DNA of 63,684 nucleotides, counting the filler, from Bigelowiella natans CCMP2755 (Eukaryota > Protista > Cercozoa), in assembly GCA_000320545.1 (NCBI GenBank). It is 3 parts of 3 records of this genome, joined end to end, with 100 filler letters (N's around TTAATTAATTAA, not from the genome) between each part and the next. Parts side by side here need not be neighbours in the genome. Positions count along the whole stretch, not along the records: positions 22,709 to 50,839 come from ADNK01002906.1; 2 more parts are not named here. The stretch is one strand, 5' to 3'. Shown one piece after another: positions 30,017 to 50,939 of the stretch. The stretch's first letter is position 1, and each line of letters starts with the position of its first letter. The translations under genes and the position numbers were made by a program. The notes beneath the pieces were generated by a model, which was not told the DNA's origin, did no database searches, and saw only the letters and a list, made by a program, of their open reading frames with translations.

Positions 30017-30849
30017 GGCTAACCATGAAGCCTAACCATGATATCCACAGTAATTATAAATCAAGGGTAACTTTGTTTGCGTATGTGTTGTATGTGTAAT
30101 ACTCAGAGCGAATTGTACGGGGATTTGTACATCAACAAGAGGCACCTCAAGGATAACAAGTTTGGACCTCATGAGCACATTCTTGGTTGCTACATTCAAG
30201 TGAATCAAGGGTGCTAAAAATGATGTAGCTAGGATTCTTATTAGCTTAGTAGAAGAGTCGTCGAAAACTTGGAATCTCATTGTCGTCACAAGTAGCCGAC
30301 CCTTAACCTAGAAATTATTAATAAAATGAATTGAAATGGAATGTAAATGAGTAGCGCCACGCTACCATAAGGATCCATTATCTTTAAATTAGAAAGTGGA
30401 CATTGATGAAAAAATATCATTGCACAATCGCTACTCGCAAGTTAGGGAATGTGCAACATCAAGGGACAACCTTCCAGCACTGCTAGTGACCGCATAGCAT
30501 CTGCGGGCGCTACTGCCGCCGATCGCATTGGCGTCAAAAATACGACGCCAGTGTATCATGCATGATGTGTCAGTACGCCTCAGTGCATTGTGTTTACAAT
30601 GACCAGCAGAAACTTGCAACATCGACTTTGCGAGTTGCACAAACCATGCTTTGTGCGCGCGGCCAGCGGCGCGCTCCACAGCTCCGTCAAACCTGTAACG
30701 AATCGCTAGAACATGCATTTAGAAGCTTTTGCGCGCGACCAAGCGCGTCATGTGATGTGATGGACATTGGATTTGCTCGCATTCTTTAAAATTTTTCGTG
30801 CATGTCACATTTGGTCAAACACACGCGCAAAAGCATCCAAAATATGGCA

Positions 30850-31481
30850 GAGAACAAACGCGCAGCGTGCATCCTCTGCGCAACGCGGTGTGAATTTTCA
30901 CACTTTGTCATTTCGTTGGAAGGAAAGTGGGTCATTAGCTGGGTTCGCATTGCACATGCTGCCTCCCCATGCCCTCTCGAAGCAACGGTTGTCACCCGGA
31001 TGACGATTTGGTGTTGCCTCAGGACAACCATTGTCCAACTTTTTGCAGCATTGAGTTGGAGCAGGAGCGGCCATGCAACATTTTTTGTCATTTCGTTGGA
31101 AGGCAACTAGGTCATTAGCTGGGTCCACATTGCACATGTTGCCTCCCCACACCTTCTCGAAGCAACGGTTGTTAGCCGGATGACGATTTGGCATTGTCTC
31201 AGGACAACCATTGTCTAGCGTTCTGCAGCATTGAGATTCAGCAGGATTGGGAGTGGGCATCACAGTGGGATTAGGAGTAGGCATTGGCGTCGGAGGCGGT
31301 GTTGGAAATGCTGTTGGGTACGTGGAAGATGCGATTCCGTTTTGAAACGCTTTGTGGAACTCGACTTCCTCGATGAGGGAAGAGTTAGCCTCTTGCTGCT
31401 CATTCAAGGCAATGAACAATGAACAATGAAGAAAGCGTTGATCAAAACTACATGCGCCAGAACCACATGGGAGACAGGCAT
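30850..31481 (-). pseudogene. Degraded gene for secreted protein with Pro/Thr stalk and two ~60-aa Cys-rich repeats
   Basis: MPVSHVVLAHVVLINAFF leader frameshifted at a (TTCATTG)x3 run; PTPPPTPMPTPNPT stalk; 180-bp tandem repeat QCC..LDNGCPE..PNRHP..NRCFE..WGG.MCN..PAND; lies in a TpA-poor island. Confidence 0.6.
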
Positions 31482-31604
31482 TTGCACGCAGCAGAGCCTC
31501 AACAACACTCGTTGCAAGGACTTGTCAGCACCCTGTTGGTGAGAGACACAAAAAATCAGCCGCATCCCATGAAATTGGCATGGATGCCGACACGTGCACG
31601 AAGA

Positions 31605-31918: not shown

Positions 31919-33974
31919 ATGGGTGATAGCAGTCCCCCACAGTTGGACAAAATTCCCTCTGTCTCTTCGTACGACGGTTCGAAGAAGTTTGCAATGAAGG
32001 AAATCGTTTGGAAAACAATCATGAACGGAGGCGACCCACTAGCGGCAATCACCAGCGTTGCATGGAAGGTTGCATTGAAGGGTGCTCACGTCGAAGCTAT
32101 GGGCGTGCTTGGGAAGTCTCTAAACCTTGACAGAATTGACTTAAGTGTTGACGAATTAGAAAGAAAACTCCTTCACAACTATTCGTGGAAGAGCTGCTCC
32201 GCATCTAATAGTTCAATGGAGACCAAGACGCGCGAATCTGTTCTGATAACATGGGGCATTTTGTTCTCCAAAATGGCTTATCTGAGCGTACCCAAGATCG
32301 AAGATATTAAGAACAAACTGGGGTTTCGATCTTATAGATCAGCGTATATTGAGGACCGAGAAATTGAGGGCTTTACGCAGGCCGCTATGCTGTATAACGA
32401 AGACGAGATCATCGTCATCTTACGTGGAACGAAGAGCTCGAAGGATATGCTTCACAACAGCGAGTTTGCGCTCAAGGATCATGTTCATCGTGGCTGGCGC
32501 TGGCTGGCAAAATATCTTTGGAAAGGGTTCTGTAGAAAGGTGGGTGAATTGGAGGAAAAGGGAGATTCAGCTAACCCAAAGCGGCGACGTGTCCATTTAT
32601 TTGGACATAGCCTCGGTGGCGCCCTTGCGGTTCTCTTGGCTGAGAACTATTTTTCAAAGAATCCCAAGCTTTTCCAGGTCTGTAAAGTAGTAACCTTCGG
32701 CAAGCCAAAAGTCGGGGACGCGGCCTTCGTGGAGAGAGTTGCGAATAGCCTGAGGGGCGTCGTGTGGAACGTGGTCTATTCCGATGGAAAATCGCACGAT
32801 CGCATCTGTAGTTTCCCAACTGGCGAGAGATACAAACACGAGGGCAAGAAAATTATTCTGAAAGACTGGGAACACAACTGCGAGGATGAGGATGAAGACA
32901 ACGAAGGGCGCGATGGCGATGAATGGGAGCACAAGACGTACGATGAGTTAGAAGCACAAGGATCCGCAGAGGCGCACGATAGAACAGACGACTCATCGGC
33001 AATCAACGACCCTCGGAATGCACGGGAGAGCGCTAGCTCCTTTACAGCTGCTAAGAGCATCGTTTACACCGGTGTTGGAACCATCTCAAACAAGATAAGT
33101 ACTGCCTGTGCGCACCTGAAGGAAGCAAGTGCGAAGGAATCGTTGATAGAATCTGGACGATACCTGTACAATGAGGTAAAAGTAATAATATACGTGCTTT
33201 TTTGCTTTACTCGAGTGACAGTAGGGCACCACAAGCTTCTTGCACGGTCGTTAATACTTGCTGCGCCTTCAGGTTGAGTACGCTATGAATCCTACAAGAC
33301 TCATGCGCCACAGACCGTCGCTGTACTTTAGAGCTGCGTGGCAAAACATCCCAGCAGAAAAAGGTACCACGACTAAAATGCTCTTCCATGTGTAGCCGAC
33401 AATTAGACGCTTTGCATAGAATGATGCGGAGGAAGGAAGAATTGCCTTATGTCTTCTACTACGCATGTTGATTTGGGAAAATACCCACTGAGCTGTGTGC
33501 GTACATGTTATGTTTCTCGCAAAATACGACGTAGCTATTCTAGAAAAGATCCGAAAGGTGCCGACTGCAAATGGCCTGTCCGTGGCGTCTGAGGGGGGGA
33601 AGCAAAAGAAAGCATTAAAAAAAGAGGCAGATTCCAAGGATGCTGCTGAAGCCAATGGCATCAATGACGCATCGCAGCACATCAACATTCCTGCTAGGTC
33701 CTCCCGCACATTCGACAAAATCTGCAACTTTGCCAAAGGAGGGACGTTTGATTGGCATCTGAAACTGAAAGAAAAAGACATTTCACTGAGAATCGACTGG
33801 ATTGACGGGGAGGGTGTTCCAAAAGCTGTTTTTGGTACCAACAGAGTTTCGGAGCACAGAGGGACATTGGCAGTGAAATCAAGGGGACAACTTCTATTCA
33901 CTTTTGACAACGGATACAGCTGGATGAAACCGAAGGACGTTCACCTCGGTGTCACGTTTAAACCTTTGAGCTGA
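31919..33974 (+). CDS. Class 3 lipase with C-terminal GOLD domain (3 exons)
   Basis: IIVILRGT, HLFGHSLGGALA nucleophile elbow, VTFGKPKVGD, HDRI, MRHRPSLY (exon 2); C-terminal LLFTFDNGYSWMKPKDV GOLD signature; introns ~33176-33272 and ~33364-33534. Confidence 0.85.
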
Positions 33975-34627
33975 AGGACAAATGATAACTTCTCTTAAAA
34001 GAGAGAGAAGGCACCGCCAGCATGACACGGTTGGCCGTCGATCGCATCAAATGCGGACGCACGATGATCAACCACGTACACGTTCGACCACGTGTAGCCA
34101 ACATCAATTGATGGGAAATGAAATAAGGGGCATGATAGCATGGCACATGTTTCTGCTACGCATCTGTCTGGCATTCATTTCTCACACATGGCCAGCGCAG
34201 GCTGACAGCTAGGCAGCACAGAAAGAAAGCGAGGCCCCACATGAAAATGACACTGCTGCATGCATGAAACGGATGCAATGAACGTGTTGATTTTTTTCAA
34301 TTGTTATCCCTGCGTAGTCATGCAAAGTTGCGGCCACTCTGGCCACTGCTGCATGTGCGAAGCTCACGTTGTGCGTCACGTGCAGTGCAAGCATGCCTGT
34401 GGCTGGACATCACCCCGATCGTGAATCAAATGGTTCCAACACAGACGACACGAGTGATCACACACACGATGAGGGCGACGAATCCAGTTCAATGAACGCG
34501 ATGCAACACGATGAAGGTGATGACGAAACAAGCGCAGTGCCAATTGTGTGTGATGTGCAAGTGACAATGACAACAATCATTGCAACTGCCAATGGCAGTG
34601 TGTGTGCAAGGCACACCTCGCAAAGCG

Positions 34628-35055
34628 ATGCGACAGCATCATGCGACTGTGTCATTGTGCTGCATCACATTGCATCATCATGCTTGTGTTTCCCAGGGGG
34701 CATTTTTTGAGGGCGGGGGCAGCATGTGTGAAGTGTGTGAGCATTTTGATGCATGCATGCATGCACATCATGAAAAGTTTGGTTTTTGTAATGCCCCACA
34801 TCCCCCCCTTGATCATGTGCCGTGCCGAGCTATGTGCTATGTGCTGTGCGGTGCGAAGCGACATGCGACTATGTCATGCGACAGCATCATGCGACTGTGT
34901 CATTGTGCTGCATCATGTCACATTGTCATACTCATGTTTCATCTGGGCATGTTTTCAGGGGGCGGGGGTTACACACATAAAGTATGTGAGTATTTTAATA
35001 TGTACATGTACATGTATACATACATGTTAAAAAGTTTGGTTTTTGAAAAGCCCCA
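34628..35055. repeat. Degenerate ~170-bp direct repeat pair (34628-34800 and 34876-35055) near the element's left edge
   Basis: Shared atgcgacagcatcatgcgactgtgtcattgtgctgcatca...gggcggggg...aaaagtttggtttttg. Confidence 0.8.
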
Positions 35056-35169
35056 GAAGCCCTCATTGATTGCAAAATGAAGGAGGTAAAAGAAAGCACT
35101 AATTTGAGTGGGGTTGAAATTAAAAATGAAGAGGAAAACGATATAAAGAATTGGATATTATGACATTAA

Positions 35170-35664
35170 ATGGAAGAGTTAAAAAATGAATTATTAAAAA
35201 TAAGAAAAAACATGAAAATAATACAACTTGATGTCGCTAAAATGAGAAATAGTTTGAAAGAGGAGCATGTCAGTGTGGAAAAAGGTTGTGCTTTGGAGGG
35301 AAAAATTAAAAATGATGGAAGAAAGTTATATAAATTGTTAAAAGAAGAAATGAGAATAGCGACCAAAATGCATAGAATGAAGAACAGAGAAAAAATGAAA
35401 TGATACAGCAAAAACTACAGAGAAGCAAATGAAGAAAAAATAAATCAACAAAAGAAAGAATGCAGAGAAGCGAACAAAGAAAAAATAAAACAATACAACA
35501 AAAAATATAGAGAAGCAAACAAAGAAAAAATGTTAGAAGAAATGAAACAAAAGGTAGATTGTGAGTTCTGCAATTGTGCTGTGACCAAAAAGCATTTACG
35601 AAGACATCAAAGAACCAAGAAATGTTTGAAAACAAGACAACAACACACACCATCAACAAAGTAG
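35170..35664 (+). pseudogene. Virus-type basic protein with YREANKEK repeats and C-terminal zinc finger; internal TGA
   Basis: Reading through TGA at 35401-35403 gives YREANEEK/CREANKEK/YREANKEK...VDCEFCNCAVTKKHLRRHQRTKKC. Confidence 0.7.
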
Positions 35665-36190
35665 AACATACAAACACATGTTCCTACCTGCAAAACAAAC
35701 AATTGACATTCAAATGGTGTGCCTACAAGGACATTTCACCACAAGTTTTCACAAAACAAATGAACATCGCATCAAATTTGTGTGATGTTCATTTGTGCGA
35801 CTGCTTACATGCGACTGCTATTACGAAGCGATGTGCCGTGCCAATGCACATGCGACTGCCATTACGAAGCAACATGCTGACACATGTGCGACTGCTACAA
35901 CACACATGCTCAACAACACATGCCATTAGCAAAAGGATTCCACTTTTGCAAAACATCCAACTATGATTTCCATTCAAAGAATTGTCTCACTGTGAGATTG
36001 ATATGAGCAATGTTGATCAAGTAAATGCAAGCAGCACAGCAGATGAAATCCATGATGTTGACTGCAAACTCAGTGAAATCGTCCTCGCAATGGATGAACT
36101 AAAAGCCGAACTGAATCCTGAATTCCATCGCAAACTGAGAGATGAACTGATGGAAGTCCACATTTGTCTAATGAGCGAAGTTGTAGATGG

Positions 36191-39001
36191 TCATGAACAA
36201 CTACACTTTCTCCAGACTGGACCCGATGTGTGTGCGGAAGCAGTCCACACAGCGATGCGAATGTGCTCCCCAGATTTGAGATGACCATCACCATGCCCAC
36301 CAACAGCAAACAGTTTGCCATCCCCAAAGGCCACACCCAAAGCATTCCTCTCAGTGTTCATGTCAGGGATTTCCTTCCACCCCGCACCCACATTCTTCAA
36401 ATCCAGATGCTCCCCAGATTTGAGACGAATGCCACCATCATGCCCACCAACAGCAAACAGTTTGCCATCCCCAAAGGCCACACCCAAACGACACCTCCAA
36501 GCATTCATGTCAAGAATTTTCGTCCACCCCGCTTTCACATTCTTCAAATCCAGATGCTCCCCAGATTTGAGACGATTGCTACCATCATGCCCACCAACAG
36601 CAAATGGTTTGTCATCCCCAACGACCACACCCAAACCACTCCTCTCAGCATTCACATCAGGGATTTTCTTCCACCCCGCATCCATTTTCTTCAAATCCAG
36701 GTGCTCCCCAGATTCGAGACGAATGCTGCCATCACACCCACCAACAGCAAACAGTTTGCCATCCCCAACGGCCACACTCAAAGCACTTCTCTCAGTGTTC
36801 ATGTCAGGGATTTTCGTCCACCCCGCATCCACATCCTTCAAATCCAGATGCTCCCCAGATTCACCACCAAACCCACCAACAGCAAACAGTTTGCCATTCC
36901 CAACGGCCACACCCAAACCTTTCCTCAAAGCATTCATGTCAGGCAGTTTCTTCCACCAAGATTTGCATGGCTGCATTGATTTGGGTTTCAAGTTTGTCGT
37001 CGTCGTTGCAGAGGTCGATGATGAAATTGAAATCCATCTCCAGAAACATCCCCGTGATCTTCGGGGCCAGTTTGTCCCCGACCACTTTCTTGATCTTGCG
37101 ATGGAGGACTTCCCCCGCGAAGTCCTTCCACTCCCGCTCGGTGCTCACCCCCAGGATTTGCATGGCTGCATTGATTTGGGTTTTGAGTTTGTCGTCGTCG
37201 TTGCAGAGATCGATGATGGAATCAAAATCCATCTCCAGAAACATCCCCGTGATCTTCGGGGCTAGTTTGTCCCCGACCACTTTCTTGATCTTGCGATGGA
37301 GGACTTCCCCCGCGAAGTCCTTCCACTCCCGCTCGGTGGCAGGAGTGGAAGGACTTCGCTCCAGCTTTTCTTCCAGCTCCCGGATGAGTTTGTTGGCCTC
37401 CTCCTCTGCCTTCTGCTTCTCCTCCAACAATTTCCTCTCATCCGCTTCTGCTCTCGCTTCTGCTCTCGCCTCAGCCTCCCTGACGGCCTCTTCTTTGTTC
37501 TTCTCGGCCATCTCCAACTTCTCTTTGAGCTCCTCTGCTTCGTCGTCCAATCCAAGTTGCTTCAAAAACTGGAGAGAACTCGTTTTGGGAGCAATCTTGT
37601 TGAACCCTTCGGCCAGTTGACCTGCCTTGGGTCGCTTGGTTCTGTCTGTGTTCAGGCACAATTTCATGGTTTCCTTGAGAATCGGGTCTGTCTCATCCAT
37701 GTTGTCATGCTTCAGCCTCCCGTTCTCTGCAGCATCTCTCAAGACATTCTTGCTCACCCCTTCAAACGGCATTCTCATCTCTACGAGGTGGCACATCACC
37801 AGTCCCAGTCCCCAAATGTCCGACTTGTGACCGCATTCACCACTGAACTGTTCGGGAGGCGACCACTCTGGTGTTCCTCCAGTGGAGACCTTCATCTGCG
37901 AGAAGGTGGAGCTCGTGTGGGCAGAGGCCAGACCGAAATCCAAAATCCGCCCATTTCGCCACCCCTCGCTCATCCACTAGCACATTTTGGCTTTTTGCAT
38001 CGTGGTGAATGACTCGTTTTTCGTGCAGAAAATGAAGTCCGTTCGCCAATTGCTTGGACCAAATGAGGCGATGCTCGTTCCCAATTGTGCATGTGTCACA
38101 GTCATCAATCACATCACTCAAGCTTCCGAGAGAGCAGCAATCCATCACAACAAAGACATTCGGTTCCATCGCCCCTCCAAACACCCGAACAACATTCTCG
38201 TGCCGAAGGGAAACCGATGCAGTGAGCTCTTTCTTGAAAAGCTCCATTTCCTTCAGGGCAGCATTGGAGCTACCAAACTTGGTTTTGGACTCCTCAAAAG
38301 CGACATCCATCCCCTGATGCTTGGCCAGATGTGCGATTCCCATTCCACCCTCTCCTGATTCTTTTGTGATCTTGACATTCTCTCTGCGAATCACCCACTT
38401 GGCCTCTGAAATCCGTTCCCTCTCCAGTGGTCGTTTCAGCTCGTTCACATCTTTCTTGCTAGCCTCCACCCAAAAAGGAAATGTCATTGTGTTGATGGGG
38501 ACAGGATCAAAATCAAAATGGTCTCACCTCCTTCTGCCGATTGCTCTTGGCCACCTGTTCCAGTCCATCAATCACCTCGTCGCGGAATTTGCGATGCTCC
38601 TCCTCACAACGATTCAGTTCTGCGAGAATGTCGGTCTGGAGCAGCTCATTGATGCGGAACGTCTGTTTCATCAGGCGACCAGATTCCGATTTGTTCTCAG
38701 ACCGTTTCCAAAAGCATTTCTTGAACCAGCCCTGACCTTGGAACGATGCGACAAAGTCTCGCACTTCATCAAAACATTCCTCAATTTCTTTGAGAACTCC
38801 CTGATTCAGCTTCCGATTGTGCAGATTGACCACGGAAGATTTCAAGAGGCTGAAGCACTTCTTCAGTTCCTTCACCATTCGGTTGTTCTCTTTGGCCTCG
38901 TCCAAGACGGAGCATGTGCAATTGTGGGCCTCCAAGATTTCTCCCACATTGACCACCACAGTGAGTGAATTGAGATGTGCGGATTCGCAACTGTTCGCCA
39001 T
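36191..39001 (-). pseudogene. MLKL-like helical N-domain + TKL kinase + coiled coil + 2x MLLE(PABC) + Kelch repeats; inactivated
   Basis: Kinase GEGGMG..LRHENVV..VIHHDAKSQNVLVD..ADFG/LA..GTPEWSPPE..KSDIW; MLLE GEVLHRKI..LAPKITGMFLEMD x2 (195-bp repeat); five Kelch repeats (~147 bp); 7-nt insertion at DFG, frameshift before Kelch, one intron with a mutated acceptor. Confidence 0.85.
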
Positions 39002-39121
39002 TTCCAAGAGTTTCCTGAAGATTTCACTGAACATCCGCAAAAACCGCCTTTGTTTCAATGTTCATTCAGTGAAGTGCGAACTTCGGTTTTCGTTTCCTGA
39101 CATTTTGCGATTTCAACACCT

Positions 39122-39529
39122 TCAACCCACCTCCAGGAGGGTCACCATGGGAATGCAGACATTCTTCATGCAACACCCTCTGTGTTTGAGATGAGTGGTT
39201 TTCATTTTGAATGCATCAAATGCTTCTTTGTCGCATTGGACACATTTGATTTTGTCAGTGAACTTGAAGAAGAAATGAATGGTTTTGCTCGTGTCTGTGT
39301 TTTGCATCTTCTCAATGTTGATGCAGGTGGCATCGCATTCATCGCTCCTCATTTTTCTTCCTTTTACTTCTACCAGTGTCTTTTTGAGTTCATCCTCAAA
39401 GTCAAACTTTGAACACCTGCTCTTTGCTATCAATTTTACTTTTAAGAGGTTTTCCATCAGCGGTTTCATCTCTAATTCGGTCTTGTGACCTGCTATGTAC
39501 TCCTCGTTACTACAGATGTTTTTGTACAT
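39122..39529 (-). CDS. PD-(D/E)xK-family nuclease, viral type; 3' half hypermutated
   Basis: SKFDFED..LVEVKGRK..C(Y)DAT..K..H(Y)FFFKFTD pattern. Confidence 0.6.
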   Translation of the reverse strand: MYKNICSNEEYIAGHKTELEMKPLMENLLKVKLIAKSRCSKFDFEDELKKTLVEVKGRKMRSDECDATCINIEKMQNTDTSKTIHFFFKFTDKIKCVQCDKEAFDAFKMKTTHLKHRGCCMKNVCIPMVTLLEVG

Positions 39530-39573
39530 GTTGAAAACAATTTACATAATATTTCATTCTAAACGAATATAAC

Positions 39574-40719
39574 ATGACAAAAGATAAAATACCTTTGTTA
39601 GGCAACCTACTACTGCGAAAAGGGTTTTACAGCAAAGAGATAGAGGACATACTAAACCTGGTCGCATTCAATAAGAAGAATGTGGAGGTGTTAGGTAGTT
39701 TTCAATTACGGAGTCAGTTCTATTTCAGTGATATTGACCTCTTTGAAAGCAATGTTAGAATACCAATCAACAGGATAGCAGATGGATTCAAAAAGAAAAT
39801 AAAGAAGATGCTGAACGACGATAAATACTATATTGGTGATACAAAATGCGGAGTGGCGGAGCATTTGAGGGTAATAAATGATAATATATATATCCACAAC
39901 AATAAGGTACATAATTACAACCGAAAGGAGATATTGGAGAGATTACACAGACTGAGAAAGCATTTACCTGACTACAAGAAACTAAAAAGACTGATTATCA
40001 CCAATCCTAATGAGGAGCAGATAAATAAAATAAAACAAATATTCAGGTTTCATATCGTCAGGTGGACCCCAAGAGAGATATTACAAGGTTGTAAGACTTT
40101 GATAGATGATAGTAAATACAAATTAGTAGAGGGAATGAAATCTCCTGCTCTCTTTAAGTTAGATTTTTACAAGTATATGAATAATAATAATTTTTTAGAG
40201 TTTAGTATCATTTATGATTTACGGAATAGCAAAGGGCAGAAACTAAACAATATACCATACGATACGAAGCAAACACTACTTAACGACATCCACAAATACA
40301 CAACAGAGGGTCAATATTTTAAGGTTTTGAAAAGGAGGTTTTCTTCATTACGATACGAGCATGTTTTTGAGAAGAAGAAGAGTAATAAGTCCAAATTAAT
40401 CGTTCTCTCAAAGATGCTAAATAGCAACTTGGGGAATTTATATCAAGTCAAAGCACTTATAGACAACCTACTCTTCTTAATAGAGAACTTTGATGATTTA
40501 AATAAGGATAGAATAAACAAATCTATTGACGACATCATAGATAAATTATCCTTTGTAAGTTTAAGCAAGTTTGTGAGAGAGGAAGATGACATCATAGATG
40601 ATTTAAAAATGATGCTAAAGGGCAAGTCTATCGGTGATATGAGTGAAAACCTGGAGGATATTTATAATACCATAGGAGATATTATAAATAAAGAAAGTTA
40701 TAAGTATATTAAAATATAA
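39574..40719 (+). CDS. Putative Pol-beta-superfamily nucleotidyltransferase (intact, 381 aa)
   Basis: VLGSFQLRSQFYFSDIDLFE fits hGS-x(n)-DhD; later FKLDF may supply the third carboxylate; intronless, AT-rich, Tyr-normal. Confidence 0.6.
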   Translation: MTKDKIPLLGNLLLRKGFYSKEIEDILNLVAFNKKNVEVLGSFQLRSQFYFSDIDLFESNVRIPINRIADGFKKKIKKMLNDDKYYIGDTKCGVAEHLRVINDNIYIHNNKVHNYNRKEILERLHRLRKHLPDYKKLKRLIITNPNEEQINKIKQIFRFHIVRWTPREILQGCKTLIDDSKYKLVEGMKSPALFKLDFYKYMNNNNFLEFSIIYDLRNSKGQKLNNIPYDTKQTLLNDIHKYTTEGQYFKVLKRRFSSLRYEHVFEKKKSNKSKLIVLSKMLNSNLGNLYQVKALIDNLLFLIENFDDLNKDRINKSIDDIIDKLSFVSLSKFVREEDDIIDDLKMMLKGKSIGDMSENLEDIYNTIGDIINKESYKYIKI

Positions 40720-40784
40720 ATTCAACCCTTTCAACAATATAATAAATACTCTTGAAGGTGTTGAAATTAAAATTCACAACAAAT

Positions 40785-43331
40785 TTAAAATATTCCACTA
40801 TTATTGAAGAGTGGACTATCAGTTAATTTGTTTATTAATTGATAACCTGGAGTTGTTAGGTCAATACCATTGTTGTTAGCATTAGAAGGATTATTATTAC
40901 CGCCAAATTGTGTAAGGGTTCTACAAGCAAATTCTCCCTGAACCAGACAATCTCTATATTTATTCCAATTTGCTATGTATGGTCTGGTTCCATTTTCCAC
41001 AGGACCTTCTAATCGTATGGATTTATAATCAGGGTTTGTAATTCCATCATCCCCAAAGTTTGAACCTCTTAAGATGAAATCATTAATACGAATTTGAGGA
41101 AAATTATATTCACCTGATAATACTATATCCAATTGAGTTCTTAAAATATCTATTTGGTCTTTCAAGTAATTATTTTGGGTTTCCAATTGCTGTAGTTTGT
41201 TGGATAATAAAACACCATTTTTCATCTTGATTTCTCCATTAAATGTAGTCTCACCACCTATTTTTACATTATTCATATGTGTATCACCTGTAAAGTGAAT
41301 ACCATCACTATTTGATAAAATACGATTCGTATAATCTGCACCTGGTAGGTGAACAAAATCAATGTAGCAGGTGCCAGAAACCATTTCTATTGAAGAAGCA
41401 TTGTTAATGTCTTTTCCTAAATAAATACCATCACTTTGTGGTTGTGTGGTGCTTCTTAAACCATTCACAAAAATTGAACTTGAAAACTGATGTTCATTAG
41501 GGTTAGATGATAAAGTTATTGGATTTAATTTCGTTTCTAACACAGACACTTGTGTCATAAGTTCGGTTGTTTTAGTTTCTATTGTGTTTGTTTTTTCTAA
41601 TATCTTTAATTTTACCTCCCCTATATTATCTATTACCTCTAATTCATTACATAAAATTTGAATATTACCACTATCATCTTTAAATCGCATTTTAGGTGTT
41701 CCTGAATGATTAGATAATTGTAAATCATTATCAACACTGAATATTTTTGGTTCTTTTCCTAATACAGATGAAGAAAACTTTAATACATTGGTTGATAAAA
41801 CACTTGTATTATTAATATTATTAGCATTAATAACCAAACCATTCGTAGCATCATTTGTTATTTTGTTTGACAGATTATAATCGCTTAATGTGGTGAGTTT
41901 CTTCTCAAACTTAGATTTGGTGCTGAAGGTTAATCCATTTATGCTATCGCTTGTAATCCCACTTATCGTTCCAGATGATGTGGAAGGATTAAATATACTT
42001 CCATTCAGGTAGAGGTTGGTGAATTTACCATCTACTCCTTCAATCTCTTTCGCTTTTATCTTGGTATCACTTGCTGATGATAGAATGATAGTAGATGGTA
42101 AGGAGTTTTTATTAATCTGCATGGTTTCATCGTTTAAGGTGTAGGATATGGAAGGACTTTGAGTTGTTGTAAACTCAAGACCTTTGAGATTTTCAATAGT
42201 GTTGTGATTCAAACTAAGATTCCTATTCATATGAACACTTTTAGTATCAACAAATAATGGGGCAGAATTGTTTGTATCGTTAATAAGGTTATCAGCATTC
42301 GTCGTCGTTGTATTATTGGTGGTGGTTGTCAGGTTATTCAAATCAAACGATTTATATGTTCCGTCAGTCTGCTTTTGCGATATAGTTTCAACATTTATGC
42401 TCTTGGTTGTGAGATTATTGGTATTAATTATATTATCACTCTGTAATTTTTTAGAGATGACATCTCCATTTGTTTTTAACTGGATATTTGTAGTGCCTGT
42501 AGTTGCACCTGTTGGTAATTCATTCACAAGAAAGTCCTTGTTTGTGATATTAATGTTGGTAGGATTGATAGTGAAATGGTCTATTTTCGTGCCTATATTA
42601 TTAATATTGGTTGTATTGCTACCAATATTGGTTGTATTATTGCTTATATTAGTGGTATTGTTGCTAATATTAGTTGTGTTTGTTGCTACATCAGTTTTGA
42701 TGGTGTTTATCCCACTTTCATTGGTAGATATTCGGTTAGTATTGGAAGTGATATTGCTTGCATTGGTGTTAGTTCTTGTGCTATTGGACTGAATAGAAAC
42801 ATTATGTCCGTTTATTGAACTCTCGTTGTTAATGATCCTATTGGTATTCTGTATTATTCTATCCCTGTTGTTAGCAATATCATCATCATTGGAAATTCTT
42901 TGAACCAAGTTCTAATTGACTTTGGTCGTGTCATTAGCAATGTTGGTGGTATTCTCACTTATCTTTGTGAGTTGGGTCGCGAGATTGTTACCATCCAGGT
43001 TAATACTTGTGAAATTCGCAGTATCTGCTGTGATAGTCTTCCCAGCATTCAACTGAATGTTCTTGCTAAAGTCTATTCTGTCATTCGTCGTAGTTGTTAT
43101 GCCATCTATTCCTGCTGAAATGTTGTTGTTGTTCGTTGTAAAGTTTTGATTGTTCAAGGCAAGTGAAGCAGATTTGATGTCATCTTCAACCATCATGTTT
43201 TTCACCCCAATCGCATCTTGAACCTGAATTCCTTTTGCTTCTAATGTTCCGTCGTTGTTCACATCCATCATCAATCTGCCATCACTTAATCGTGTAAAAT
43301 GATTTGCCGCACTCACATGTGTGTTTGACAT
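40785..43331 (-). CDS. Fibre/adhesin-like structural protein; two ORFs in the same frame separated by one TAG at 42912-42914
   Basis: NTTNISN-type heptads and Asn/Thr-rich beta segments; ...KVN*NLVQR continues in frame. Confidence 0.65.
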
Positions 43332-43446
43332 GGTTTAGATGAAAAAATGTTGAACACATGTTCATTCCAGATTTCAATTTCAACACCTTCAAGGGTGTTG
43401 AAAGGGTTGAATGTCAACATCAGAATGAACACATGAATGCACGTGA

Positions 43447-44061
43447 TCAAATTTGACTTTGAATGAAATTTCCTGATGCTTCAAATTGAACTCCTGCCTT
43501 GATTCTCACAACTGGATCAGAAGGGTCGGTTTCATCAATTTCTAAATGCTCTTCCAATTTTGCGAGACGAGGTTCTTGATTGTCAAATCTTTGCTGTTCT
43601 GAAACAACCGCATCAGCAATTTTCTGGTCCATGTCATCATCACGAGTTTTCAATTCTCCTTCAATTTGGGTCAATCTGGCACTGTCGTTTGCAACCAATC
43701 CATCTAATCTGGAAATCTCACCATCCACAAAGGCATTTCTTGTGTTGTGAGCATTTTCTGAGGATGATCTCGCACTGGTTTCAGCAGCGAGTTTGCCTTC
43801 AATGTCAGTTTTGTTGTCATCAATTTCTTGCTGCAAATTGGTGATTGCATTTGCAGTGGCAGTGTCAGCATTGTCCATCTGTGTTTGCAATCCTGCTCTT
43901 GCTGTGGCATTGGCAGTCTCGCTGTCATTGCAAGTTGTCATGTGGGCATTCAAAGAATTTGACACAGCAGTCTTCTCTGTGTCAATCCTTGTGATGGTTG
44001 AACCTGTGAGTGCTCCATCAATTGATGCGGCATTTCCAAAATGTGCAGTGGCGGACATCAC
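43447..44061 (-). CDS. Coiled-coil putative structural protein (hypermutated)
   Basis: Ala/Thr/Glu-rich heptads (LAAETSARSSSE); no Tyr; C-terminal SGNFIQ similar to neighbour. Confidence 0.5.
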   Translation of the reverse strand: MMSATAHFGNAASIDGALTGSTITRIDTEKTAVSNSLNAHMTTCNDSETANATARAGLQTQMDNADTATANAITNLQQEIDDNKTDIEGKLAAETSARSSSENAHNTRNAFVDGEISRLDGLVANDSARLTQIEGELKTRDDDMDQKIADAVVSEQQRFDNQEPRLAKLEEHLEIDETDPSDPVVRIKAGVQFEASGNFIQSQI

Positions 44062-44097
44062 ATGACATGGTTTGGAAAATGATCATTTTTGAAGATT

Positions 44098-44448
44098 TCA
44101 TCCCTGCTCCAAGTTGCCTGTGACCTTCAAATCACAAGCGGTCGTTGTGTTCTTGTTCGCATGGTCTGTCTGCAGTGCTTGCAGTGTTTGATTTGTCGCA
44201 TCCAGCACATCCGCTTTGAACGATGCAATGTCGTTCTTTGTCGCATTTGTCTCGCTCTTCATCTCACCCACTTCATTTTGCAGACTTGTGATTTCAGGTG
44301 CTTGCAATTGGTCACTTGCTTTGATTTTGTCACACTCAATGTCATCTGAATCAAAGTCAACATTGCCGACATTGAACTCCACTGCCTTGGTGGTCCCATC
44401 AACATTCAAATGGTTCGCAAAACTCACATTTGTCATGACATGCTGCAC
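44098..44448 (-). CDS. Short coiled-coil putative structural protein (hypermutated)
   Basis: HVMTNVSF..NVDG start and TGNLEQ end parallel the 43447 ORF (HVMSATAHF..SIDG; SGNFIQ). Confidence 0.45.
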   Translation of the reverse strand: MQHVMTNVSFANHLNVDGTTKAVEFNVGNVDFDSDDIECDKIKASDQLQAPEITSLQNEVGEMKSETNATKNDIASFKADVLDATNQTLQALQTDHANKNTTTACDLKVTGNLEQG

Positions 44449-44515
44449 ATTTCATTTGAAAAGAAAAAACATCACGTTTGTTGAGTGATGATCACAATGT
44501 TTTTTTTGATGACAA

Positions 44516-45706
44516 TCAATTCATTTGCACAAGCACACTTTTCTCCACTTCAAAGTGTTCAGGAAGTGTCTCCTCTTTCCATTTCCCAAGTTCATCACTG
44601 ATTTCAAAATGCATTGCTTTGCTTCTTGCTGTCACCAAACTGTCGGTGTGACTGTGCACAACACAGTCTTTGCATTCATTTGTCAAACCAACCACACAGG
44701 TTCTCACATGAGAGGCAAGAAATGGTGCCATTCTGCAGGCATGGCATTCAAAATTCTTCTTTTCTTCTTCAAATTTGGTCAAGGACAATGTCGCACATCC
44801 ATCAGGTCCCATTTTGCATGTGGGGGTTTCATCACTTTCTCGGTCATCAATTTCTGTCACTTGCTTTGTGTTGACCTTTCTTCTCAATTTGGTTTGGAAT
44901 GCACCCCACAGTTTGTTCATTGTCAGTTTCACTGAATCTTGAGATTTTGAATGAGGTGACAATCTGTGAAAGAATTCACCAAAGAGTTTCATGGACTTTG
45001 ATTTCTCTTTGTGATGTGAACAATTGGTGTCCAATGGGTTCAATTTCAATCCTAATTCTTTTGCTTGTTTCAGTTCAAGATGAGTGCAAATGTCATGTTT
45101 GTTGCATTTGAAAAATGCATCATCATCTTTGCTCATTTCAACACAATGCAGACCACAATTGAATTTGCAATGCTCATCAACTTGTTCCTGTGATGTGGTT
45201 CTTGTTTCAGGTGTCCCCAAAGAAACAGTGAAATGATTGCTACGTGGGACGGATGTGCATTTTTTGTTCAAATCCAATTTGATGTAGTCTTTGTTTTGAT
45301 GTTCTCCATCCACACCACATCGCATCCCACCACGACTACTTTCACACACCCATTTTTCTTCCATTTCTGTGGTCGTACCAAACTCTACCTCCTGTGGTCT
45401 GAACTGATTCCAAATGTGCAAACTCATCTCTGCATCATCGTAGTTGCTTCGTTTGTAGTCACAACCTGTGATTGCTTTGAACTGATGAAAATCGTTCATT
45501 TTCTTTTCACATTCTTCAATCACATTGCTGTTCTTGGATGGTTTAAGAACATGCAAATTGTGCCCTTCCAGTGTTTTGCTTCGCAGGATGTTCTCACCAT
45601 CTACAGTTAAATGGCATTCTTTCTCATCTCTGTTGTGATGACAGACACCAAAGGTTTTTCGGTTGCAATTGGTAGCACATCTGTGTTTCTTTTTTTTCGG
45701 CAACAT
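44516..45706 (-). pseudogene. Compact family B DNA polymerase (protein-primed-PolB-related), hypermutated
   Basis: SSRGG, motif A DLNKKC(Y)TS, motif B KLTMNKLWG, RMAPFLAS, motif C VVH(Y)SHTDSL, LGKWKEE; no obvious exonuclease domain. Confidence 0.75.
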
Positions 45707-45757
45707 GCATGTTAACACATGCATGAAAGAGTATTTCTTTGAACACTTTTTCGCACA

Positions 45758-45982
45758 TTGTTTGAAATGAAGGCAAAATCGTAAAGGCATTACGAGTCTT
45801 TCATTGCAATCATTGCAACACCTTCCTTTTTCATGAGGTGATGCATTGTTTCCCCATCCTTCAAGTAAACTATCACACATGCAACAATGACGATCATTCG
45901 GATGTTCAATATCATTTGTCATCACATCATGTTTGCATTTTTTTTTTCCAGATTTACCTGACACATTGTTTTCCATTTTCAT
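45758..45982 (-). pseudogene. Small Cys-rich zinc-binding virus/phage-type protein; stop codon erased
   Basis: CCMCDSLLEGWGNNASP..GRCCNDCNERLVMPLR; CAA at 45758-45760 sits where the paralogous junction has a stop. Confidence 0.6.
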
Positions 45983-46027
45983 GTTGACACACATGAAAGA
46001 GTATTTCTTTGAATGCTTTTTCGCATG

Positions 46028-46414
46028 TCACTTAAAATGATTAATTGGAACGGACTGTGCAAAAAAATCGTCCCCATGAAGGTCTGCACTACCGAAACCT
46101 TCTTGTCTGTTGCTTGGGCAGTGAACACCATCACCGAGTGTTGTCATTCTTCCTGACATTGGCATGTTGCATTGTGAGATGTGAACGACTTGGATTTCTG
46201 TGTTGTCGTTCATTTTCCCTCTGTTTTTCAGTTTGTTCATTTTCCTCGCGATGATTTCATTTGCTGTGGTGGCATCAGGGAGATGCTTTTCACCTTCCTT
46301 TTTGAAGTCACACCTTCTTGTGCACAGGAATTCATTCCTTTTCTTCATGTTTTGTTTTCTTTCCTTTGATTTGTCATCACATGCTTGAAACTTCAATCTG
46401 ACTCCATTACTCAC
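46028..46414 (-). CDS. Hypothetical viral protein (hypermutated)
   Basis: 128-aa ORF co-oriented between helicase and PolB; no Tyr. Confidence 0.4.
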   Translation of the reverse strand: MSNGVRLKFQACDDKSKERKQNMKKRNEFLCTRRCDFKKEGEKHLPDATTANEIIARKMNKLKNRGKMNDNTEIQVVHISQCNMPMSGRMTTLGDGVHCPSNRQEGFGSADLHGDDFFAQSVPINHFK

Positions 46415-46417
46415 ATG

Positions 46418-48331
46418 TCACATGCATGTGAGAGATGAATCTTTGAACATGCACCATGCATTCACGTCTACCTCTTCTTCATCATCTTCTTTCTTCATCA
46501 ATTTCTCAAAGTAGAACTTTCCTCTCACTTCACCAAAAAGAAATTTGTTTGCTAACATTTGCTTTTTGAAGTTGCTTTTAGACACGTGCACAGGAGACCA
46601 ACTTTCAAAGTGTTTGCAAATGTCGTTGTGTGAAATTCCATCTCCAACATCATCAGTTTTTTCGTAGTTCTCTTCAACAAAATTTGAGGTGTGATTGTTG
46701 TCGTTCAAATGATCGTTTGTGAATTTCAATGCCTTTTCAGGAGGGTTTGATTTCTCCACATCTACACGTTCTAACAACAGTTTGATGTGTTCTCCACGAT
46801 GTTCTTTGTTGTTTCTGAACTCATCTTTGAGAGTGCAATCTCTTTTCTTTTCACATTTGTTCTTGGGGTCAGGTTTTTCTTTGAATTGAAAAGGGAATTG
46901 GATGTTCAAGAACCTTCGTTTGACACTGTCATCCACTTTGTCTAGTTTGGGAGCATTGTTGCATGAACAGAAAATGGAAAAATCGGCAAGAAACTCAACA
47001 GGAGTGTCATGCATCTCTCCACAACTTGCTGTGTCATCATCGGCAATTTTTTTGAGAAAACTTGCATTGAAAGACAGTTCTTTGTCGCCTTCATTTTCTT
47101 CAGGTTCATCAACGACAACCAATCGCTCATCCACACGCTTGTGCAAATCACCATTGGGGGCATTTGCTTCACATTTGGTTGTCAGGAACTGAGAAGAAAC
47201 CACATTGCAATGTTTGGAAGTTGCTGCTTGATGAAGAGCAGTTGGCACCCCCTTCCCATTCCCACCGCTTCCCAAAAACGCAATTGACAATCCAAACTTG
47301 TCGCAAAAGAGACTGTTTGCTGATGATTTTGGCAGAAACAGAGCATCTTGTTGTGTTTCTTGCATGCCGAAAATGAAATCCAATGTGTCCTTTCTCACCT
47401 CTTGTTTGATCGGTCTTTTGGGTTCAAGTTTGAATTCAATGTGATTTGAAACAAAGTCTTTCTTTTCTGCATCTCCAAAACTTTTTGTTTCAAGGTCACG
47501 CACACAATCTTTGAACGCTGATGGGTTCTCATTTTTGTCCATTTTGTTCAATGTGTCCTCATCATTGCAGCATTTCATCAGTTTGGCGATGATGTTCTTG
47601 CTGAAGGCATTGCTTCCCACCTTTCTGAAATTCTTTGGGTGTTCTGCTTTGCATTTCTTGTCCTTTCCAATCTTGGCAAACTCCGTTTTCAGGACATGCT
47701 GTGAGCATGTGGAAATTTGGTTGTTCAAAAAGACTGGTGCTTCCTTTTTGCAGGACTTTGTGATGTTGTTCTCATCGCAGAAGAACCAAATCTCATGTTC
47801 CTGATTGCACACGTGAGCATCTTTGTTCAAATCATGAAATGGTTTTGCCCAACATTCGTCGCTGCAAGTGGGCAACACATCGGTGAAAAATCTGCAATCA
47901 ACAGCAATGACAGGTTTCCCATCAAGCACACTGATGCTGTCAACATGGTCCTGGACAGCGGAATTGTCAATGTCATTCATGTGCATGTCACGTTGTGCAT
48001 TTTCATCTTCAAACATGAACGACTGTTTTGGCAAAGCAAGTTCGTGTGAAACACAAGAAAACCATTGAACACAAGTGACACTTTTCTTGGGTCTTTGCAC
48101 GTTTGGATTGAGAAAATCAACCATCAAATCTCTGTCCAAAAGGTGCAGTTTCAAACACATTTGTTTGTGCTTTTCAAACTTTTCCATCTTGTCAAAACTG
48201 TCAATCACTTTGCATTTCTTTCTGCAGTTCAACAGAACTCGCTGAGCATTCAATTTCTTTTTGTTTCTTCGGTAGCATGCTTTCTGGGATTTGCATTTAG
48301 CATTGCCGTTCGTAGCATTTTCATTCTCCAT
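46418..48331 (-). pseudogene. D5-like SF3 helicase (primase-helicase family), hypermutated, probably fused to a small upstream ORF
   Basis: Walker A FLGSGGNGKG, Walker B RLVVVDEPE, FLKKIADDD, motif C SCNNAP, D.SVKRRFLNIQFPFQF. Confidence 0.85.
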
Positions 48332-48375
48332 TTGTTAGCATTACATAACTGTTTTCTTTTTAAATAATTTTCGCA

Positions 48376-48465
48376 CATGCGACTGCCATGTATGTGCGAC
48401 TGCCATGTGCTTACATGCGACTGCTATGTGCTTATATGCGACTGCTATGTATATGCGACTGTTGT
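48376..48465. repeat. Cluster of five (A/G)TGCGACTG-core short repeats
   Basis: catgcgactgccat, tgtgcgactgccat, catgcgactgctat, tatgcgactgctat, tatgcgactgttg; same core at 34628-34900 and 35795-35900. Confidence 0.85.
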
Positions 48466-49215
48466 GTGCGGAAACAAGTGTATTATGTTGTTGGTGAGAG
48501 AGCAACAAGATGTGTATTGTGCTTCCAACTCTTTTTTGAACTTTTGGTAGTAATCTGTTTTACTCTCTTCTTTGTCCAATGGACTTTTGCCCCAAAATTG
48601 TTTATAGGTTTGACTTCTAAAATCATCCAGTGTGACTGCCTTCCACATTCTATTTTTTGACACCTGATACCAATATTTGGTTCCATTGTGTGTAATGTAT
48701 GTGGTAAAGTCAATTTTGTATTGCTTGGCATACCCAAACTCTCTTTTTACAGTGTCCATTAAATCTGTTGTTGCCTTTTTGATGACTTCCTCTTTGACTT
48801 TGGGTGCTAACCACTTCATTGTAGTGTCGCAGTATTCAATGGCATCGTTTAATCGTGTTTTTACTTGCTTGGAATTCGCAACCATAAAACTCCATTGACC
48901 CTCTAAAGCACATTTGGCCTTGTGATATTGGATGCTGTTTTTGTCCATTTTAGAGTTTTTCTCTATCTCCTCTCCATATGCTTTACAAGCTCTTTGGCTC
49001 CATTCATCTAATTTGAGCAAATCGTCTTCATAGTGCTTTTTCAAACCTTTCAAGTTGTTATACCACTTATGGAAACTGTTGGGAGACACTTCTCTAGCAG
49101 TATTTTTTATGTCCATTGGGTTGTAACTTGCCATTTGCTGACTTTGTTGAAGGACATTTAACTGCGGGTTGTAAATCACCCACCTCTGTTTTTTTTGTGT
49201 CATCGCCTTTGTCAT
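48445..49215 (-). CDS. Hypothetical Lys-rich viral protein
   Basis: 256-aa intronless ORF, Tyr retained; 3' end may be extended by stop loss. Confidence 0.55.
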   Translation of the reverse strand: MTKAMTQKKQRWVIYNPQLNVLQQSQQMASYNPMDIKNTAREVSPNSFHKWYNNLKGLKKHYEDDLLKLDEWSQRACKAYGEEIEKNSKMDKNSIQYHKAKCALEGQWSFMVANSKQVKTRLNDAIEYCDTTMKWLAPKVKEEVIKKATTDLMDTVKREFGYAKQYKIDFTTYITHNGTKYWYQVSKNRMWKAVTLDDFRSQTYKQFWGKSPLDKEESKTDYYQKFKKELEAQYTSCCSLTNNIIHLFPHTTVAYT

Positions 49216-49471
49216 TCTATCCCAGTCAGGTTCTCCATCAGGAACATAGGTTAAAAGGAGTGGTCCCTTGTTTTTTACATTGCCATTATCAGCACCACCG
49301 CAAAGTCGCTTGGTGAGGTTTAGAGGAGTGCTGAAAATAAGAAATAATGTTAGTGAACATATTTTCCTCCCATATCAACATTCAACACATTCAACAAAAA
49401 ATAAATTGTAACTAAATAAGTTATTTTATGTTAAGAGGAAAAATGAAAATTGATGTTAAAAGTATGTATCA

Positions 49472-49855
49472 TTACCTTATGTCCTCCTCCTCTGGACGAC
49501 GAGAAGGGAAAGAAGTGTGACTTGTCTCTTCCACATTGACCTTCATTCGCTCAAGCGAAGCACAAAGCTGGTTCAGTTTAGCATCAGCATCCTTTCCCTT
49601 CTTTGTCCTCTTGTCCAGTTCCTTGAGTTCTTTATGAGCTACATCTACCTCCTTGGACATCTGGAAATATTTTCTGAGAGCATTCAATTCCGTCTCCTGT
49701 TGCTCCAACATCTGGTATAACATTTGGTTTTGCTGTAGTAGATATTCTGTGTAGTTGAAGTCCTCATCAACGGAAGCATAAAACTCTTCCCATCTCTTCT
49801 TCATCTTTGCTTCACTGGGAGATGGTGCTTTGTCTCTTCCATTCTGGTCCGCCAT
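49472..49855 (-). CDS. Hypothetical coiled-coil protein
   Basis: MADQNG..LLQQNQMLYQMLEQQETELNALRK; intronless. Confidence 0.5.
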   Translation of the reverse strand: MADQNGRDKAPSPSEAKMKKRWEEFYASVDEDFNYTEYLLQQNQMLYQMLEQQETELNALRKYFQMSKEVDVAHKELKELDKRTKKGKDADAKLNQLCASLERMKVNVEETSHTSFPSRRPEEEDIR

Positions 49856-50113
49856 TCTAAAGTCGTCTCTCACACTTGTTGCTAACTTTCAATTCAAATT
49901 CAAAAATTCATTGTCGCACTCTCAAAATTAGAATCTTTTACCAACATTTTAAATTTAACACAAATTTTGTTAAAAACTTAAAGAAATGGATAATATTTTC
50001 ACTCTGGAGACTCTCCACACCTATGACTAAATCAGGTTCCACACACCCTTGCGAATTGCCAGTGAAGGTTGTGTCTATGTGTAGACTGGTGACATCAAGC
50101 AACAGGAAGGACA

Positions 50114-50839
50114 ATGTCTGTGTCACAATTCTTGGGAAAAGATGATTGGAAAGTGAGTGTTCAAGATGGTGGAACTTACTTGGTTTCTGGGAACCAAACG
50201 AGCAACAAAGACAAGATTGTGAGCGAGAAAGTGAAGCAACTGGAAAATCATCTGAAGGGTTGGAAAGGAAATTTGAAACACGAGTTCAAGAAGCGAGAGG
50301 AAGATATGTCCAAATGTGAGACTCAATTGAGGAAACTGGAGAATGAAATTGAAAAGGGAGACAGCGATGAAGAGGATGATGACGAAGGGTTGGATGGTGA
50401 GTGCGAAGAGCGAGACATAATCCGTGAAATTATGACCCAGCGAGACATTTTGGGAAAACATCGCAAGAAAATCAAGGAAATTACCGACATGTTGGAAGGA
50501 AGGAAAGTTTGTAGCAAATTGAGGGATGCTCGGGAAATTATGAATGGTCAGAAGAGTTTGGAAGTCGATTACAAACTTACGATGGAGCAGTATGCTTTCA
50601 AGCACATAGACACAAAATTTGTGCTGAAATACAAATTCAACGATGGGAAAATATCAGTTGTGTCTCAGTTGAGCGATGAAAGTGTTTTAGTGGAAGGGGT
50701 ATCCTTCACAGGGCACAGTCTTTTCTCCTTGCGAAAGTGTGGGGACAAAGCAACTCTTGTTGCTGTGGCCCAAGCGGAAATTCAGTTGACGGATTCTATT
50801 CAAACTCTGTATGACAAGACCGCTGATGAAATCACACGA
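50114..50839 (+). CDS. Hypothetical coiled-coil protein (runs into gap)
   Basis: >240-codon intronless ORF, charged coiled coil with acidic patch. Confidence 0.5.
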
Positions 50840-50939
50840 NNNNNNNNNNNNNNNNNNNNNNNNNNNNNNNNNNNNNNNNNNNNTTAATTAATTAANNNNN
50901 NNNNNNNNNNNNNNNNNNNNNNNNNNNNNNNNNNNNNNN
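50840..50939. other. Assembly gap with TTAATTAATTAA linker
   Basis: N44-TTAATTAATTAA-N44. Confidence 0.97.

Follow-up and report, generated by a model that had tools for sequence, protein, structure and literature searches.

Mettrop et al. (bioRxiv 10.64898/2026.01.13.699255) placed 231 of 302 de novo mutations of Bigelowiella natans in two integrated viral regions; every A>G/T>C change in these regions, seen in a subset of lines, fell at TpA. In their nucleocytoplasmic large DNA virus (NCLDV) region, a single-copy, untranscribed target of 186 kb, A>G/T>C at TpA accounted for 210 of the 211 de novo changes. The preprint also reports 19 single-nucleotide mutations confirmed by Sanger sequencing, lists 124 TpA-depleted clusters, draws a comparison with repeat-induced point mutation (RIP) and proposes an ADAT2 candidate. 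Here we analyzed a 63,684-nucleotide stretch of B. natans CCMP2755 (the window), in which an integrated virus-like element at about 33980-48420 shows severe loss of TpA. The initial annotation of this DNA, which proposed conversion of TpA to TpG/CpA on both strands, knew of no formal description of such a process; that it is undescribed is not supported, as the preprint, the only report found in a literature search, has already reported a DNA-editing defence in B. natans, which is likely the cause of the changes seen here. The hypermutation at this locus is very likely the same process in the same species and thus a rediscovery, with the TpA spectrum, the involvement of both strands and the viral target in common. 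However, the preprint shows de novo changes, whereas the window shows the end state, polarised gene by gene. The main text of the preprint does not treat flanking context, tract structure, strand runs or stop-codon loss; what is added here is the tract mosaic, the context of surviving TpA, the absence of strand runs, TpA loss in a host-type gene and an intergenic patch, and the loss of stop codons.

First, the size of the TpA loss was determined. Only 6 TpA were counted in 36241-39360, where about 193 were expected from base composition (observed/expected ratio, o/e, 0.03), and 46946-48272 contained none against about 112 expected; P remained below 1e-14 for both counts when the lowest rate seen in host exons (o/e 0.3) was assumed. 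Both counts agree exactly with those first made by eye (about 6 and none). The segment 43706-45052 likewise contained no TpA. In the near-saturated 1-kb bins the o/e was 1.5-2.2 for CpA and 1.1-1.7 for TpG, which bears out the TG/CA excess claimed earlier. Perfect (TA)n tracts were kept in host DNA, as had been noted: 13 pure tracts of 13-33 units each were found there and none in the element. The proposal that the whole interval 33980-48420 is hypermutated held for its dense tracts but not as uniform coverage, since 373 of its 508 TpA lie inside a lightly mutated island at 39428-43107.

Segmentation by the share of TA among TA+CA+TG sites resolved the element into a mosaic of near-saturated tracts of 1-5 kb and the 3.7-kb lightly hit island, with tract edges within open reading frames (ORFs) and partially converted zones at both element ends. 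The near-saturated tracts are 36204-39425 (8 TA of 566 sites), 43113-45238 (8 of 484) and 46948-48262 (0 of 277); 45241-46943 is mostly converted (32 of 363), and the island has 373 TA of 845 sites, 101 TpA per kb and a GC content of 32%. From the island to 43113-48262 the sum of TA+CA+TG was almost conserved (229 versus 218 per kb). GC rose from 32 to 40% in saturated DNA, AA+TT did not change (233 and 229 per kb), and CpG, at 18 and 14 per kb, showed no loss compared with the island. Together these values exclude CpG deamination.

The patchwork, as distinct from the spectrum, poses a question separate from that of the enzyme. It may in part stem from exchange between saturated and fresh copies, by recombination or gene conversion, or from the mixing of copies during assembly, an origin that we regard as possible while leaning against it. 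At least five family copies are labelled on other scaffolds, an assembly gap is 2.5 kb away, and differences other than TpA edits are fewer in the island (2/379) than in the genes for the primase (19/507) and the family-B DNA polymerase-like protein (PolB; 10/393). However, the island is not free of TpA edits, its gene also varies less than the primase among fresh copies, the edges are graded at 43107-43340 and from 48273 onward, and the TA left varies from 0 to 9% inside a single tract. A recent insertion nested in the element was also considered for the island and discarded. The gene it contains belongs to the family and, on other scaffolds, has gene numbers next to those of the family; its edges fall within ORFs, and an element motif occurs both inside and outside it.

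The cluster thresholds of Mettrop et al. were passed by 8 of 63 1-kb segments of the window, 7 in the element and 1 at 58001. Five of these are consecutive (43001-48000), and the locus may therefore be in the tables of the preprint. Scaffold 146, on which the preprint places its hypermutable virophage region, is also the scaffold named in the labels of two unmutated paralogues, P0016 and P0043, a correspondence at the level of the scaffold.

The direction of change was then analyzed at the protein level by comparing window codons with the majority residue of unmutated B. natans paralogues. Where several minimal paths were possible the TpA path was taken, which gives a slight bias toward TA. 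Protein P0031 (identical to the window over the matched stretches), fragments P0044 and P0047, the near-duplicate mutated proteins P0028, P0032 and P0050-P0052, and relatives below 45% identity were left out of the counts, and P0042 was used as an alternative reference only. TpA>TpG/CpA changes alone explained 81 of 103 amino-acid differences in the primase (507 columns), 68 of 78 in PolB (393 columns) and 6 of 8 in the island gene at 39574-40719; with P0042 as single reference the figures were 63/75 and 65/81. For non-synonymous A>G changes, the numbers of sites edited and left were 157 and 24 at TA, 8 and 251 at CA, 2 and 364 at AA, and 2 and 251 at GA, and transversions were few among the polarised differences. 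The unmutated paralogues retain Tyr, Leu and Ile residues. Of the 65 Tyr in primase and PolB, 31 were changed to Cys, 26 to His and 3 to other residues, and 5 survived (27 of 29 changed in the primase, 33 of 36 in PolB). Polarisation of element homologues by context, which the initial annotation had set as a check, thus gave the TA->TG/CA excess, with Tyr kept in unmutated copies. Read from these sequences, the data support a TpA-specific A:T>G:C hypermutation of both strands that is targeted to the integrated virus.

Several residues that had been singled out as altered could be compared with relatives. The Leu->Pro change in GKGVPT and the Tyr->His change in PolB VVHSHTD were upheld, as unmutated homologues read GKGVLT and unmutated paralogues VVYSHTD, and at the kinase motif ECGHKSDIW all three relatives carry Tyr. 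At the kinase motif MDCC, Tyr was present in two of three relatives and not in the third; for HDAKS, read as Val->Ala, the relatives carry Ile/Val; and the reading of ESGEGG as Leu->Ser was not confirmed, as both covering relatives have Ile and not Leu. The Kelch motifs of the gene at 36191-39061 are presumed to have had a Tyr ancestor.

Ordinary causes, namely 5-methylcytosine deamination at CpG (which yields TpG/CpA), viral composition or sequencing error, are refuted for the polarised genes and hardly credible overall. When internal repeats are compared, 17 of 30 adjacent double differences are reciprocal TG/CA doublets, which fit a CpG ancestor, and the internal doublets were dropped as stand-alone proof of TpA editing because such an ancestor gives the identical pattern. 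However, codons for Tyr, Leu and Ile are present in the unmutated paralogues, CpG is not depleted, and the pattern recurs, with differing outcomes, in further copies, of which some (P0053, P0028) come from other data sets. Sequencing error is further opposed by the Sanger-confirmed mutations of the preprint.

Across seven mutated proteins Tyr>Cys and Tyr>His changes were nearly equal in number (92 versus 87). In five pairs of copies the outcome was the same at 64 sites and different at 53, which suggests that the copies were edited largely separately, although the window and P0003 agreed 14 to 5. The island gene is not intrinsically protected, as 22 of 22 Tyr were changed in P0027 and likewise in P0053. 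These two proteins run five residues beyond the stop codon of the unmutated copies, as expected from loss of TAA. In the island gene, none of 250 possible TpA edits would create a stop codon and 167 of the 250 are non-synonymous, so inactivation would come from missense load. TpA loss was also carried by a host-type kinase-MLLE-Kelch gene inside the element and a separate intergenic patch. Mutated copies were found in other data sets, including the transcript-derived proteins P0032 and P0050-P0052, which argues against an artefact of a single assembly. The transcript-derived copies, together with the same 5' preference, would also suit RNA editing of the ADAR or ADAT type (U at -1), with the edited transcript reverse-transcribed and inserted back into the genome. 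This route is very improbable: neither strand is preferred, hits to the two strands are interleaved across intergenic DNA and genes of either orientation, and it is already largely refuted by the mutation-accumulation data of the preprint, in which de novo changes appeared in situ within the untranscribed, single-copy NCLDV region of 186 kb.

The context of the surviving TpA was compared with a context-free simulation on the island, which is an imperfect stand-in for the ancestor. A 5'-A or 3'-T was found at 4 of 36 surviving TpA in 43300-48272 against about 57% simulated, and G/C on both sides at 15 of 36 against about 9% simulated. Survivors were mostly CTAC/GTAG, and ATA/TAT was hit hardest. 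All six survivors of the kinase tract were CTAC/GTAG or CTAG, and all five surviving Tyr in primase and PolB were cTAC codons. Surviving Tyr in three other copies stood at the same residues as window survivors in four of five cases. Ile>Met changes outnumbered Ile>Thr changes (58 versus 34, P = 0.016), which points to a favourable A at -2 of the edited adenine.

These data fit a proposed mechanism in which a host adenosine deaminase would make inosine that is copied as G, so that T:A pairs at TpA become C:G, on either strand and over kilobase tracts. Once the element had integrated, each copy would be edited independently in repeated rounds, while its DNA, marked as foreign, is transiently single-stranded. 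The best substrate would be 5'-AT[A] and the worst TpA with G/C on both sides, and the outcome would be missense inactivation, affecting about 20% of residues without new stop codons. The likeliest enzyme appears, on balance, to be a host DNA adenosine deaminase of the TadA/ADAT fold, as a candidate only. DNA off-targets of TadA8e favour TA (PMC13225742), editing by fungal Tad2/Tad3 prefers U at -1 (PMC11156358), and changes in the window are nearly pure transitions, which together favour an adenosine deaminase. The T at -1 preferred by TadA/ADAT enzymes is matched by the window spectrum (157 TA edits versus 12 at CA, AA and GA). The likeness to TadA8e and ADAT2-ADAT3 lies in A>G with T/U at -1; it is limited in that TadA8e is engineered and fungal Tad2/3 edits RNA. 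Of the suggestion that a DNA-level A->G process acts against foreign DNA, the TpA-specific A:T>G:C change on an integrated virus is sustained, and the adenine-centred chemistry is a proposal.

Several points weigh against this reading. Single-strand deaminases usually leave strand-coordinated runs. Such one-strand runs, a feature of APOBEC/ADAR-type viral hypermutation, were detected in none of the seven mutated proteins (P = 0.50-0.96), although multi-round saturation would mask them, and a strand-direction test at Tyr codons was not significant (10/16, P = 0.45). The secondary CpA>CpG activity expected of TadA was weak (P = 0.008 or 0.09, depending on the reference), and Cys>Arg, His>Arg and Gln>Arg changes were absent in five other mutated proteins. 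The polarisation rests on proteins and not on the DNA of unmutated copies. Amphioxus ADAT2, the one natural ADAT2 assayed on DNA, departs from this spectrum: it favours adenine in GAA and acts on C as well, with a preference for TCG (PMC10354150). Finally, TpA is palindromic, and the sequence cannot separate adenine-centred from thymine-centred chemistry.

The target could accordingly be thymine, an explanation that we consider unlikely: in silenced foreign DNA, a TET/JBP-type enzyme would oxidise the T of TpA, with T>C arising from the altered base directly or from its repair. Mispairing of 5-formyluracil gives T>C; thymine oxidation yields the identical spectrum, and its action on duplex DNA fits the absence of strand runs. 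However, TC (GA on the other strand) was spared here (2 versus 251). In dinoflagellates 5-hydroxymethyluracil is made by TET/JBP, is enriched on repeats and was reported to replace T preferentially in TA and TC, but it is reported there for silencing and not for mutation (PMC11572971). Less probable still is the resynthesis of long element patches by a Pol eta-type error-prone polymerase that would misinsert G opposite T at WA motifs. Such resynthesis would account for kilobase tracts with edges in ORFs, and in antibody genes Pol eta is the polymerase that mutates A:T pairs at WA motifs (PMC6423074). The spectrum opposes it: AA was spared (2 versus 364, with AA+TT unchanged), transversions were few, and the preprint found almost exclusively A>G/T>C at TpA in the NCLDV region. 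Pol eta also hits AA sites and produces transversions.

Adenosine deamination being preferred, we also put forward, tentatively and as a doubtful extension, a tract-laying DNA adenosine editor that would be a mirror image of RIP. It would lay kilobase patches with the preference 5'-AT[A] > TT[A] > (C/G)T[A], recognise chromatin or repeat status and not viral sequence, as suggested by the hits in the captured kinase-Kelch gene and in unrelated intergenic DNA, and leave open, still-transcribed, Cys/His-rich ORFs, as the edit can only remove stop codons.

We next consider the element itself, a decayed copy of a virus-like element that is likely a B. natans provirophage. Its closest relatives are proteins that carry source labels of Bigelowiella natans gene models and whose gene numbers neighbour one another on several scaffolds, and the putative virophage membership rests on this family link. 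The hypermutated D5-type primase/superfamily 3 (SF3) helicase gene (46418-48331, minus strand) matches Pfam D5_N, and its unmutated paralogue P0016 is a primase in PHROGs. The hypermutated PolB gene (44516-45994, minus strand) is 79-80% identical to unmutated paralogues. Its product had no convincing match in Pfam or PHROGs, and the unmutated paralogue P0021 scored 0.95-0.96 with DNA_pol_B_2 clusters in Atlas. The nucleotidyltransferase-like gene of the island (39574-40719, plus strand) is 97% identical to unmutated copies labelled B. natans, which by itself makes this species very likely the host, and its 43% relative P0033 matches Pfam L544_NTransf. The minus-strand ORFs at 40785-42911, 42912-43334, 43447-44082 and 44098-44451 are termed fibre-like from weak PHROGs tail/fibre matches (E = 0.0017 and 0.0004) of solely the last two. 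The right island edge (about 43107-43340) falls within the ORF 42912-43334. An ORF of unknown family (39122-39529, minus strand) spans the left tract edge at 39365-39428, and its 5' part is intact while its 3' part is TpA-free.

The gene at 36191-39061 (minus strand) is a frameshifted, host-type kinase-MLLE-Kelch gene by Pfam and lies in the near-saturated tract 36204-39425. Its order is an N-terminal helical domain, a protein kinase, a coiled coil, two MLLE domains and about five Kelch repeats, and it aligns with P0059 in three collinear pieces at 40-51%. The helical domain and kinase also occur in the relatives P0059 and P0061, of which P0059 has Sel1 repeats at its C-terminus. No close unmutated kinase paralogue was found; the best non-self full match was 51%.

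The left TpA-depleted zone, 34001-34960 (GC 50%; o/e 0.22-0.24 for TpA, 1.7-2.6 for CpA and 1.9-2.1 for TpG), holds a unit of about 250 nt as two tandem copies (34628, 34876) with ATGCGACTG repeats and is likely the left end of the element, with an uncertain boundary. It is followed by AT-rich broken element DNA with 45-nt repeats (34970-36202), in which the TA fraction is 0.37 (lightly hit) to 35555 and then 0.11 (partly converted) to 36202. The ATGCGACTG direct repeats form three clusters in a single orientation (34641 and 34889; 35795-35886; 48377-48453), and their copies differ from one another by TpA edits. The right, partly converted zone (48273-50050, 59 TpA per kb) contains ATGCGACTG repeats at 48377-48461 and two ORFs of unknown family, one of which, 48448-49374, had no match in Atlas. 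No terminal inverted repeat was found in a search of 33000-51500. An assembly gap with a TTAATTAATTAA linker follows the right zone at about 50839-50940, and the right end of the element may be beyond it. The motif TTCAACACCTTCAA or a close variant occurs in either orientation near element gene ends (39112, 40721, 40752, 43379, 43398 and 49381) and may serve the element as a promoter or terminator. In 39361-43000, GTAC (3) and CTAG (0) are almost missing from the 366 TpA contexts, unlike in host DNA, possibly through avoidance of restriction-type palindromes.

The provirophages of B. natans (Blanc et al. 2015) are described as likewise AT-rich and multi-copy, with primase-helicase and PolB neighbours on several scaffolds. 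In contrast to them, the window copy carries the host-type kinase gene and has no recognised terminal inverted repeat. Capsid, ATPase, protease and integrase were not recognised in its ORFs by Pfam and PHROGs, which are general and not virophage-specific profiles, and the copy is mutated and may be truncated. The Lavidaviridae replication genes, primase/SF3 helicase and PolB, are present, but they are common to Polinton-like viruses and hence not diagnostic. An exact-sequence protein look-up gave no match for 8 of 10 window ORFs, and DNA of close relatives was not found in viral or metagenome contigs. Three viral contigs found with the distant P0039 do not classify the element, as only the nucleotidyltransferase-like gene is in common (30-32%); their TpA o/e is 0.68-0.81, and no capsid match was obtained in 18 ORFs scanned. 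A C5 cytosine methyltransferase and an ORF resembling a tyrosine integrase were noted in one such contig (L001:10262-11152).

Outside the element, the small intergenic patch at 58330-58960 (GC 53%; o/e 0.18 for TpA, 2.01 for CpA and 1.85 for TpG) showed no similarity to the element and is possibly a relic of another mobile element. It lies directly downstream of a Duc1-domain host gene. A minus-strand, Cys-rich ORF of a 180-nt repeat at 30500-31500 was borderline for the thresholds in 500-nt segments, a signal that is probably coding bias.

RIP mostly converts CpA to TpA and creates stop codons. The element shares with RIP dense, context-specific transitions on both strands that are confined to invading DNA and ratchet to saturation. 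However, C>T at CpA with gain of TpA and stop codons was not found; the chemistry in the window is opposite to the C>T of RIP (bioRxiv 10.64898/2026.01.13.699255, discussion), as TpA is destroyed, CpA gained and GC raised. RIP is triggered by duplication, depends on RID and is premeiotic; the NCLDV target of the preprint is single-copy. For annotation, loss of TpA removes stops and leaves long ORFs in many frames, which calls for caution. As a fossil end state, the window constrains the enzyme through a flanking-base rule, tract structure and strand symmetry, which are modest but testable constraints. If true, the tract-laying editor would be a natural A>G DNA editor, and a natural TpA-specific DNA adenosine editor would represent a new kind of eukaryotic genome defence.

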